Shown here piece after piece: positions 3,001 to 6,000 of a DNA stretch of 7,879 bases. The first letter of the stretch is position 1, and each line of letters opens with the position of its first letter. The stretch comes from a virus (taxonomy: Duplodnaviria > Heunggongvirae > Uroviricota > Caudoviricetes), in the IMG/VR virus record IMGVR_UViG_2648501338_000002, positions 1 through 7,879 of that record, one strand, 5' to 3'. Made by a program: the position numbers.

Positions 3001-6000
3001 ATTTTGCATTTCCTTCGCGCTGGTTTAGCCATTAAGCAGCCTCCCCTGTTACTTTAAGCATTCCGTTATCTAGCAGCTTTCTTGTCAGCCACTGTTGACC
3101 ACGCCCGGTGATTTTTGTGGTGAACGATATCTGTATTCCGTGATTTGTATTGACCGCTGTTTCTTTCACTGTGAAATAGCCGCGATCCATATATTCCTGC
3201 ATTGGCACATTGCGCCGGGCACCTGAAGCAATAAGGATTTTGTGATCGCGCATCCACGCAAACAGTTTGTTTGGACCAATACCAACAACCTTTGCAAAGT
3301 TTCCAATCAAAATTCCGCTGGCCTCGCCAACTCGATCGGCAAACTCAACTTTAGGTGCTGCGAGAGCAAGCTGTTTCTCCAGTTCAGCCTTCTGGTCTTC
3401 AAGGTCGGCCGCAAGGCGCAATGCCTCAGAAAAGGTTTGTGGTATTTTCGCGGTTGCCCCTTCGAGTTCTCGCCAGCGGTCAACAAGGCGAGCGGTGAAT
3501 TCCGGCGACAACTGGGCAACGACAATAATGCTGTCGCGCTTACCTTTTTCGCCTTCGAAGACGTAATGCTCGTACTGAACATTGAACCCTAAGTTATTGA
3601 TTCTTTCGGAAACCTCAATTTGAGGAAGCCGGATAACTCCACTTTTAACCAGCGTTTCGATGGTTCGTTTCACATTGTCATGACGCTTACCTGTAAGCTC
3701 AGCGATTTCAATGCTAGTCATTTTGATGACGTTGCTATTTATCAGCTCGTTCATTGTCATGTCCTCTCATATTGAAAATTCACCAATAAAAAACCCAGCC
3801 GAAGCTGGGTTTGTTAAGTTGTCAATGGTCAGTAGTAATGCAGTGAAGGAGGTAAACTTACGCTGAAGGATTTGTACAAAAAAACCACCTGAAGGTGGGT
3901 TACTGTTACTTGTCTGAATCATCCAGTTCGTCTGTTTTCACATCCTCAAACCTTGGATGCAGGCGATTCATTTTTGCAATAAAATCTGAATAGTCGTTAG
4001 ATAGCTTCATAATCGTAACGGTTGATGACAGATGCTCTCTTAATTTTTGATATCCAATATTTGGCGTCAGCCCCTGAAACAACTTTGTACCTTTTGAGGC
4101 CTTTACGTTCTGCTTTTTAAGCTCCTCAAGGATGTTTGGTGCCAATCTCTTGTAGACGATATCATTTGTCAAAACGCCAAAATACTGAGGCCGGAAGCGG
4201 GGATTTTCCGGCGGGTATTCTAAGCCCCTTAACCTGAAAAGCTCTTCATAATAATCAGCAGGAAATGTTGTAATATAAGGTTGAATTTCCTTTGCGACAA
4301 AGGCCTCGAGTATTTTGGCGAGCGCATCTTTTTCTCTATCTCGCTGGTACCCCGTCGCTTCATCAACAAGCGCTATTATTCCGACTTTAGCTAATGAGCG
4401 CACCAGAATTTCAGCTTTCTTGGCTGTCTCTAACTGGTTTGGCCTGGTGATAGCGCCTGCCTCTCTTGCCTTTAAATAAACATCGCAGACAAGAGGTATT
4501 ATGGATGCGTCATAACCTTCCTGGACGGAGCCAGTAATCGTCTTGTATTTGACCTTATTGATCACACCCATAACATCTTGATTTATATATTTTTTAAGGT
4601 TTGCAGCATCCATAAAAGCGGGCATATTGATCACCCCCTCTTCTTGAGGTGCTCTACCCCCTCTTTGTGGTCGGCCAAATGCTTTAAAAACAGAAGCTTG
4701 TGATATGATACGCCGTCCATTTTCGAGAACCGCGACATCTAATTCCGCATCACCGATCTTTAACTTTCCCTCATTCGCAGATACGGGCAATAAAGCTTTT
4801 TCTTTTTTTGCGGCAACAGCCTTTCTTGAGGATTCTTTTCTTTGCTCTGCTGTCATTTTTGCCGCGCGTGCCTTACCGCCTTTGGCCTTCCCACTAACAT
4901 CATCATTTTTCATGAGCATATCTCGTGTTGTGATTGATAAGTCAATCATACACATGCACGTTGTAACGTGCAATATTTAAATATGCACGTAAATTGCGAA
5001 TCAGATAATGAGGAGACTTTCTCCCCCTTGCACTGACATCATGGTATTCTGCTCAAAACTAAATTTCTGGAGCGTTTCGTTGGAAGGTATTTGCAGTTTT
5101 CGCAGATGATGTCGGTGATGCTTCTTTGCTGTCGCCTCATGCCGCCCTCCTGACGCCCTGCCCGATCGCCATCAATGCCGCTTTGGATACGGTAGTAAAC
5201 ATTCGTCGAGGACTGATGAACGGTCGCCAAATCAGCAGCATGGAGCCTTTGCTGTTTCCCTTCTTCTCCAGCCCTGTCGATGGTTCGATAAAATTAATCC
5301 GTCCATCAGTGATGATGCGAACTTCGTCAACACTCTCCAGAGCCTTGCTGAACCATCCGACTGACATATCCTCTGGCACAAGCATAACTACCGTCTGTCG
5401 CTGTTGTATGCACTGCTCAGCGGCTTTTTCCACCCACGGCCTGATATTGCTGTACGGTGGGTTATTCCAGATTGCACCGTGGCTTACCCACTCAGAATTG
5501 AGCGCGTCGTCGGCCTCAGTCAGCCAGTGAGCGCACAGAGCATTTTTGTCGCTCGCTGCTGAATCCAGCCAGAATCCAAACTCAATATCCAGTGCATCAA
5601 AAAGCCAGAGCGGCGTTTGCCAGCAGTCCTTGTCGTGTGCTGGCGTATTTGATTTGATAGTCATGCAGCCCGATCTCCCCATCGCGCTTTCCATTCGAGA
5701 GCCAGTCGCGCTTCGTCTGACCACTTAACGCCACGCTCTGTACCGAATGCCTGTATAAGCTCTAATAGCTCCGCAAATTCGCTTACACGCATCCTGCTGG
5801 TTGACTGGCCTATTACCACAAAGCCATTCCCGGCAAGGTTAGGAACAACGTCCTGCTGCTTTAATGCTGCTGTAAAAACGCACTTCCAGCTTTCTGCATC
5901 CAGCCAGCGACCATGCCATTCAACCTGACGAGAGACGTCACCTAAGCAGGCCCATAGCTTCCTGTTTTGGTCTAAGCTGCGGTTGCGTTCCTGAATGGTT

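Follow-up and report, generated by a model that had tools for sequence, protein, structure and literature searches.

Genes and Signals at the dam Locus

The DNA analysed here (the window, 7,879 nucleotides) corresponds to positions 1 to 7,879 of the Caudoviricetes record IMGVR_UViG_2648501338_000002 of IMG/VR, and the gene under study is dam (5137-5664, minus strand), which encodes a predicted phage N6-adenine DNA methyltransferase of 175 amino acids. All the genes of the window are on the minus strand, and together they make up the rightward early/nin block of a lambdoid prophage of the 933W type. The window was 99.1% identical to an stx-negative prophage of E. coli C325 and, across the shared parts, about 98% identical to 933W. 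We consider, with a probability of roughly 0.8, that this gene is the nin-region Dam of 933W/VT2-Sakai-type lambdoid phages, that it would top up the GATC methylation of phage DNA during its rapid replication, and that it forms a module of its own, independent of the P63C cassette located downstream and without a specific tie to ninB.

The open reading frame (ORF) of dam, as read from the sequence, starts with the ATG at 5664 and ends with the stop codon at 5139-5137. Upstream of it lies ninB (5661-6101), an Orf-family recombination mediator of 146 amino acids whose start (MKKLTF) was taken at 6101 from RefSeq, the mechanical ORF extending to 6119. The ninB stop TGA (5663-5661) and the dam start ATG (5664-5662) overlap as ATGA (5661-5664, minus), as the sequence-only reading of this DNA had described. 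A Shine-Dalgarno-like run, GGGGAG (5675-5680, minus), is found within the end of ninB, 10 nt upstream of the dam ATG, and a GATC site (5672-5675) adjoins this run. The ribosomes that translate dam would probably come partly from termination on ninB, by means of the ATGA, and partly from the gene's own Shine-Dalgarno site.

The gene belongs to the rightward delayed-early operon (O-P-ren-ninB-dam-...-ninG-ninH-Q), which is under repressor control, and it is situated behind a terminator-like hairpin with a T-run (6126-6149, minus), which separates ren from ninB where the nin block begins. This position matches that of the 933W operon, which is annotated with pR, nutR and terminators. Considering its place in a repressor-controlled operon behind such a hairpin, expression of dam is expected mainly after induction or infection, by antitermination.

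Family Assignment and Known Relatives of dam

The dam protein matched PF05869 "Dam" over profile positions 1-167 of 169 and residues 4-169 of 175 (E-value 6.4e-65; 218.4 bits, cut-off 28.1), and the equivalog TIGR01712 "phage N-6-adenine-methyltransferase" over the whole profile, 1-165 of 165 (E-value 9.7e-80; 265.9 bits, cut-off 97.05). It also matched phrog_111 "DNA methyltransferase" with an E-value of 8.6e-88, and among the PADLOC models the orphan one, oMTase (3.6e-19), was much better than those of Type II methyltransferases (4e-07). The protein has the class I (Rossmann-like) S-adenosylmethionine methyltransferase fold. Its (D/N)PP(Y/F) catalytic motif IV is NPPY at residues 68-71 (5452-5463, minus), and this tetrapeptide, together with an FxLDxAA stretch and several further positions, did not vary across an alignment of 24 homologues with identities down to 60%. 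The N-termini of all 24 coincided with the Met at 5664; these N-termini and the RefSeq annotation rule out the 195-amino-acid ORF that would start with GTG at 5724. The G+C content of the gene was 0.52-0.53.

No restriction-nuclease-like protein was detected near dam by Pfam or PADLOC in the window, where NinG was the only nuclease family, nor was a restriction nuclease, or any nuclease family besides NinG, present in the 14.8-kb annotated context of the 99.1% identical C325 prophage; a nuclease partner was likewise not found in the neighbourhoods of four divergent dam homologues. The window thus offers no candidate to pair with dam in a Type II restriction-modification system. By homology, the sequence-only assignment of ORF 5664-5137 to an orphan N6-adenine DNA methyltransferase was confirmed, although the identification proved to be one already made.

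In effect, the product is identical to that of VT2-Sakai Dam (M.EcoVT2Dam, BAA94133) in 175 of 175 residues and to L0094 of 933W (NP_049494) in 174 of 175 (99%). The DNA of the gene is 99.2% identical to that of VT2-Sakai, and in both phages dam has the same place after ninB and the same ATGA overlap as in the window. What follows differs: VT2-Sakai has an intact ninE and another gene (H0107), while the window and 933W have a truncated ninE and the P63C cassette. The VT2-Sakai enzyme is named M.EcoVT2Dam in REBASE, with 5'-GATC-3' as target, according to PMC6602927, which cites Radlinska and Bujnicki 2001 (PMID 11720311). The GATC specificity of the window enzyme is therefore a reported one, attributed to it through its protein identity to M.EcoVT2Dam. 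The gene was annotated as early as the 933W and VT2-Sakai genomes, and its cloning and GATC specificity are reported in the literature; as a discovery dam matters little. In PMC3342100, which lists the dam product of Phi24B at 100% identity to VT2-Sakai Dam, the protein was found in cultures of lysogens, with a significant change in expression upon induction.

The gene is widespread. With a threshold of at least 95% DNA identity it was found in 244 records of the phage collection and, among 5426 complete E. coli genomes, in 1566 (about 29%); its homologues extend to the prophages of numerous genera of Enterobacterales. The Dam enzymes of phages HP1 and T1 resemble it in the full-length profile match (PF05869; TIGR01712, phage_N6A_met), the length of about 165-180 amino acids, the NPPY motif, the orphan status and the phage or prophage location; they are distant members from other phage types, and the likeness was established by means of the family profiles.

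By comparison with the host-type enzymes of the alpha class (E. coli Dam, T4 Dam and DpnM; PF02086), the phage protein has in common the reported GATC target and the S-adenosylmethionine-dependent N6-adenine chemistry. It gave no PF02086 match and has no separate DNA-recognition domain; orthology with host Dam was thus rejected, and the phage enzyme is a Dam through its target, without close kinship to the host enzyme. Membership in the beta-class MT-A70 family was also discarded, since that family has DPPW where dam has NPPY and no MT-A70 Pfam match was found. With 175 amino acids the protein is essentially just the catalytic core. Neither sequence nor profile searches found a solved structure for the Dam or the P63C family.

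The Relation of dam to ninB

Translational coupling of dam to ninB had been proposed from the overlap of their ends. The overlap is real, but it is not particular to this pair: ATGA joins the genes at 5 of the 10 junctions of the window (O/P, P/ren, ninB/dam, dam/truncated ninE and ninG/ninH), and such overlaps have been called typical of nin regions (PMC8022706). Furthermore, the divergent homologues come behind other genes. In Pectobacterium and Serratia prophages the dam homologue (73-80% identical) comes after a DUF1367 gene, in a Providencia prophage after an unnamed gene of 81 amino acids, and in a Yersinia prophage it is the last gene of a different early operon; the packing was tight around all of them while the neighbour varied. 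A specific ninB-dam coupling was therefore rejected.

The junctions that flank dam, GGGCTGCATGA and GGGCGGCATGA, are near-copies of one another. In one IMG/VR locus (L005) ninB is joined by ATGA straight to the same truncated ninE, dam being precisely absent. Since the flanking junctions are so alike and L005 makes the direct union, the comparison suggests that dam may be a gene-sized module, gained and lost by recombination at conserved gene boundaries. A motif GC[T/G/C]GCATGA was observed in common at the ninB/dam (5658-5680), dam/truncated ninE (5134-5156) and ninG/ninH (2424-2446) junctions, all on the minus strand, where the upstream proteins end in -AA; the ninB-ninE junction of L005 uses the same motif.

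The P63C Cassette and Its Supposed Partnership with dam

Downstream of dam, the sequence-only reading placed an inserted module immediately next to the methyltransferase gene. The two are in fact separated by a ninE remnant (5039-5140, minus; PF05322), whose ATG overlaps the dam stop through a further ATGA (5137-5140). The remnant has 33 codons, 26 of NinE and 7 unrelated, followed by a stop; PF05322 matched its residues 1-26 with an E-value of 7.5e-16, and in the near-identical prophage RefSeq lists a NinE pseudogene. The homology to the dam-ninE phages stops at 5063, so that a mosaic breakpoint lies within ninE at 5062/5063, where the P63C cassette begins. This cassette covers approximately 3859-5062 (minus) and carries the P63C-domain gene (3906-4919, minus). 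Exactly the stretch 3859-5062 was found alone in foreign contexts in three IMG/VR loci (L018-L020), which sets the limits of the cassette. Taking into account that the right limit falls inside ninE, the cassette would be an independent insertion that landed by chance behind dam in the 933W lineage.

The independence of the downstream gene had been argued before from a separate promoter and from its composition. The difference in composition is real, the G+C content of the P63C gene and cassette being 0.38-0.44, lower than that of dam; as for the promoter, a consensus scan of 4919-5137 on the minus strand found no sigma-70-like one. Just upstream of the P63C start, at 4949-4993, there are three copies of ATGCACGT/ACGTGCA, which form two inverted pairs (4955-4962/4965-4972 and 4966-4972/4984-4990), and the layout of these repeats looks like that of an operator. 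Two terminator-like sites, each a hairpin with a T-run, were seen between the P63C gene and roi (3885-3898 and 3791-3812, minus), so the cassette would carry its own terminators into the early operon. The P63C gene behaves like a portable cassette of low G+C content.

A functional relation between the two genes, by which P63C would read or depend on the methyl mark in a modification-sensing pair, had also been raised, and the co-occurrence across prophages that was suggested for its evaluation was run by counts in three collections: the phage collection, the complete E. coli genomes and IMG/VR. For the last one, 80 loci encoding P63C relatives, made up of 18 near-identical cassettes (17 of them informative) and 62 divergent loci (47-87% identity), were scanned with a hidden Markov model built from the Dam alignment. 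The closeness of the two genes in the window and in 933W speaks for such a pair, as does the fact that all 17 P63C-bearing phage records have dam adjoining it; these 17 records are, however, all at least 99.9% identical and so represent one recent mosaic, a single lineage. They amount to 7% of the 244 dam-bearing records (17/244), and the 227 others, without P63C, have mostly an intact ninE in place. The joint arrangement occurred in 34 complete E. coli genomes against the 1566 that have dam. Dam was missing from 6 of the 17 informative cassettes, L005 and L018-L020 among them, and a Dam-family ORF lay within 8 kb in only 3 of the 62 divergent loci, being adjacent in none (0). Elsewhere, P63C homologues stood by themselves, with no methyltransferase close by, and their settings were tail genes, immI-like regions and Pseudomonas islands. 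To this should be added the truncated ninE and the mosaic breakpoint between both genes. For the P63C protein neither fold nor family searches pointed to a nuclease, with the reservation that its AlphaFold2 (AF2) model was poor (predicted template modelling score 0.47) and lacked a useful fold match. On these counts the partnership was rejected, and we give the two-gene system almost no credence.

Other Features of the Window

At the high-coordinate end of the window are O (7160-7861), which the window end cuts, P (6462-7163) and ren (6175-6465). The ren-ninB gap (6120-6174) measures 55 nt, the terminator-like hairpin included; in 933W (L001, 6541-7440) this gap holds two additional genes, one hypothetical and one Lar-like, for restriction alleviation. 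Beyond the P63C cassette are roi/antirepressor (3032-3760), ninG (2427-3032), ninH (2236-2430) and Q (1809-2282). Between Q and the tRNAs, at 1408-1521 (minus), there is the trace of a second methyltransferase: its C325 counterpart is annotated in RefSeq as a "site-specific DNA-methyltransferase" pseudogene without N-terminus, and the 50-amino-acid ORF of the window gave no match in Pfam.

Three tRNAs follow (1118-1367, minus): Arg(tct), Arg(tcg) and one with a cat anticodon, which is Met for ARAGORN and Ile in the annotation of 933W and RefSeq. The place that stx2AB has in 933W, after the tRNAs, is occupied here (354-1033, minus) by a TerB-family gene (518-940; PF05099, phrog_632 "tellurite resistance") and a DUF3927 gene (354-521); therefore the window comes from an stx-negative relative of 933W. 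At the left end Rfam detected, back to back, AgvB (anti-GcvB; 94-155, plus strand, 96.5 bits) and STnc100 (156-349, minus strand, 145.6 bits).

The Proposed Role of dam and Its Alternatives

In the proposed mechanism, the phage protein would act as a single-domain, S-adenosylmethionine-dependent enzyme that methylates the adenine of GATC at N6. Phage DNA synthesis in the lytic cycle would outpace the methylation provided by the small pool of host Dam, and the phage enzyme would finish the GATC methylation of the progeny genomes. Once fully methylated, this DNA should be no substrate for nicking by MutH or for GATC-directed methylation-sensitive nucleases, and it would enter the next cell resembling the DNA of a Dam+ host. 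Several published observations are consistent with these steps. Host Dam is reported to leave the virion DNA of lambda and P22 under-methylated, in the words of PMC8022706 "possibly because replication outstrips modification". As cited in PMC5014478, Deschavanne and Radman 1991 reported lower phage yields in dam- mutH+ hosts, harm from unmethylated GATC of phage DNA in mutH+ cells, and counter-selection of GATC in enterobacteriophages. GATC was also depleted in our window, with 22 sites observed and 30-36 expected (Markov estimate 35.6, ratio 0.62), as well as in the C325 prophage piece (L083; 39 observed, 65 expected) and in the 933W piece (L001; 22 observed, 43 expected). CTAG (0.40) and TATA (0.53) were low too in the window.

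A number of points weigh against this role. The biological benefit of the phage Dam is our inference; in a paper of 2020 the role of such phage enzymes is described as still poorly understood (PMC7556043). Many closely related lambdoid phages do without dam, so any benefit must be conditional. The depletion of GATC in spite of the phage having its own Dam fits an incomplete protection and is no proof of a link with MutH. The GATC specificity goes back to one paper of 2001, as cited in PMC6602927. Finally, the AF2 model of the dam protein was of moderate confidence, with residues 33-48 below 50 in predicted local distance difference test, and it gives no account of how a bare core would read GATC.

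The nearest alternative in content is classical anti-restriction, the self-protection that the sequence-only reading had put forward, in which progeny DNA is methylated beforehand and so survives in the next host enzymes that cut unmethylated GATC (MboI/DpnII type). It overlaps with the completion of methylation proposed above, as both involve the same completed methylation, and the sole difference is the nuclease evaded. The orphan state of the methyltransferase, with no nuclease found nearby, speaks for it, phage orphan methyltransferases figure in reviews among the protective "Trojan horse" modifiers (PMC12707154), and the spread of homologues over prophages of many Enterobacterales genera also agrees with it. 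The claim was nevertheless overstated, because E. coli Dam already methylates GATC and the classical value in this host is limited: the hosts being Dam+, the GATC sites of progeny DNA are for the most part methylated already, restriction of unmethylated GATC would be little defence against phages from Dam+ neighbours, and no system that cuts unmethylated GATC was seen in the contexts examined. We regard this explanation as unlikely, though still a contender. That the main purpose is instead the blinding of the host MutHLS mismatch repair, or of another sensor of un- or hemimethylated GATC, during phage replication and recombination, seems to us a rather doubtful proposal.

Two other roles would give the enzyme a different target or moment of action. 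As an epigenetic regulator, the phage Dam would supplement or override host Dam at regulatory GATC sites, with effects on lysogeny stability, induction or host genes; Murphy et al. 2008, cited by PMC3342100, reportedly found that 933W lysogeny needs host Dam to be stable, and it has been suggested that the Phi24B Dam, whose product was detected in lysogen cultures as mentioned above, may supplement host Dam (PMC3342100). Against this is the position of dam deep inside the repressor-controlled operon, behind the hairpin, and its detection in lysogen cultures may therefore stem from spontaneously induced cells. Among strains of Shiga toxin-producing E. coli with differing dam copy number no methylation motif beyond GATC was attributable to dam (PMC6602927), and the regulatory regions of the window have no clusters of GATC, with zero sites between Q and the tRNAs and zero between the ninE remnant and P63C. 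This role appears to us quite improbable. An RNA methyltransferase activity has a precedent in M.EcoPA8orf6770P, an annotated adenine methyltransferase also from an Stx-type prophage, which showed a preference for 16S rRNA in complex with its partner and tunes induction (PMC10810198). That enzyme is a different gene, gp5, located near the left end, about 3.3 kb into the phage genome; it belongs to the MT-A70 family, has DPPW and requires the partner PNB-2 (PMC10810198), while the window protein has NPPY, belongs to PF05869 and is encoded in the nin region, and the identical VT2-Sakai protein is reported to methylate GATC in DNA (PMC6602927). Being of another family and from another locus, identity with the 16S rRNA enzyme was rejected, and such an activity in dam is extremely unlikely.

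Implications

Three aspects of the phage Dam keep a modest interest: what a phage would gain from methylating GATC in a host that is Dam+ already, the reading of a 4-bp site by a bare catalytic core in a family for which no solved structure was found, and the blindness of routine methylome comparisons, for instance of a lysogen with a cured strain in a Dam+ host, to the phage enzyme because host Dam masks GATC. If the blinding of MutHLS were true, it would explain both the recurrence of dam next to ninB and ninG, in a nin block rich in recombination, and the persisting poverty of these phages in GATC.

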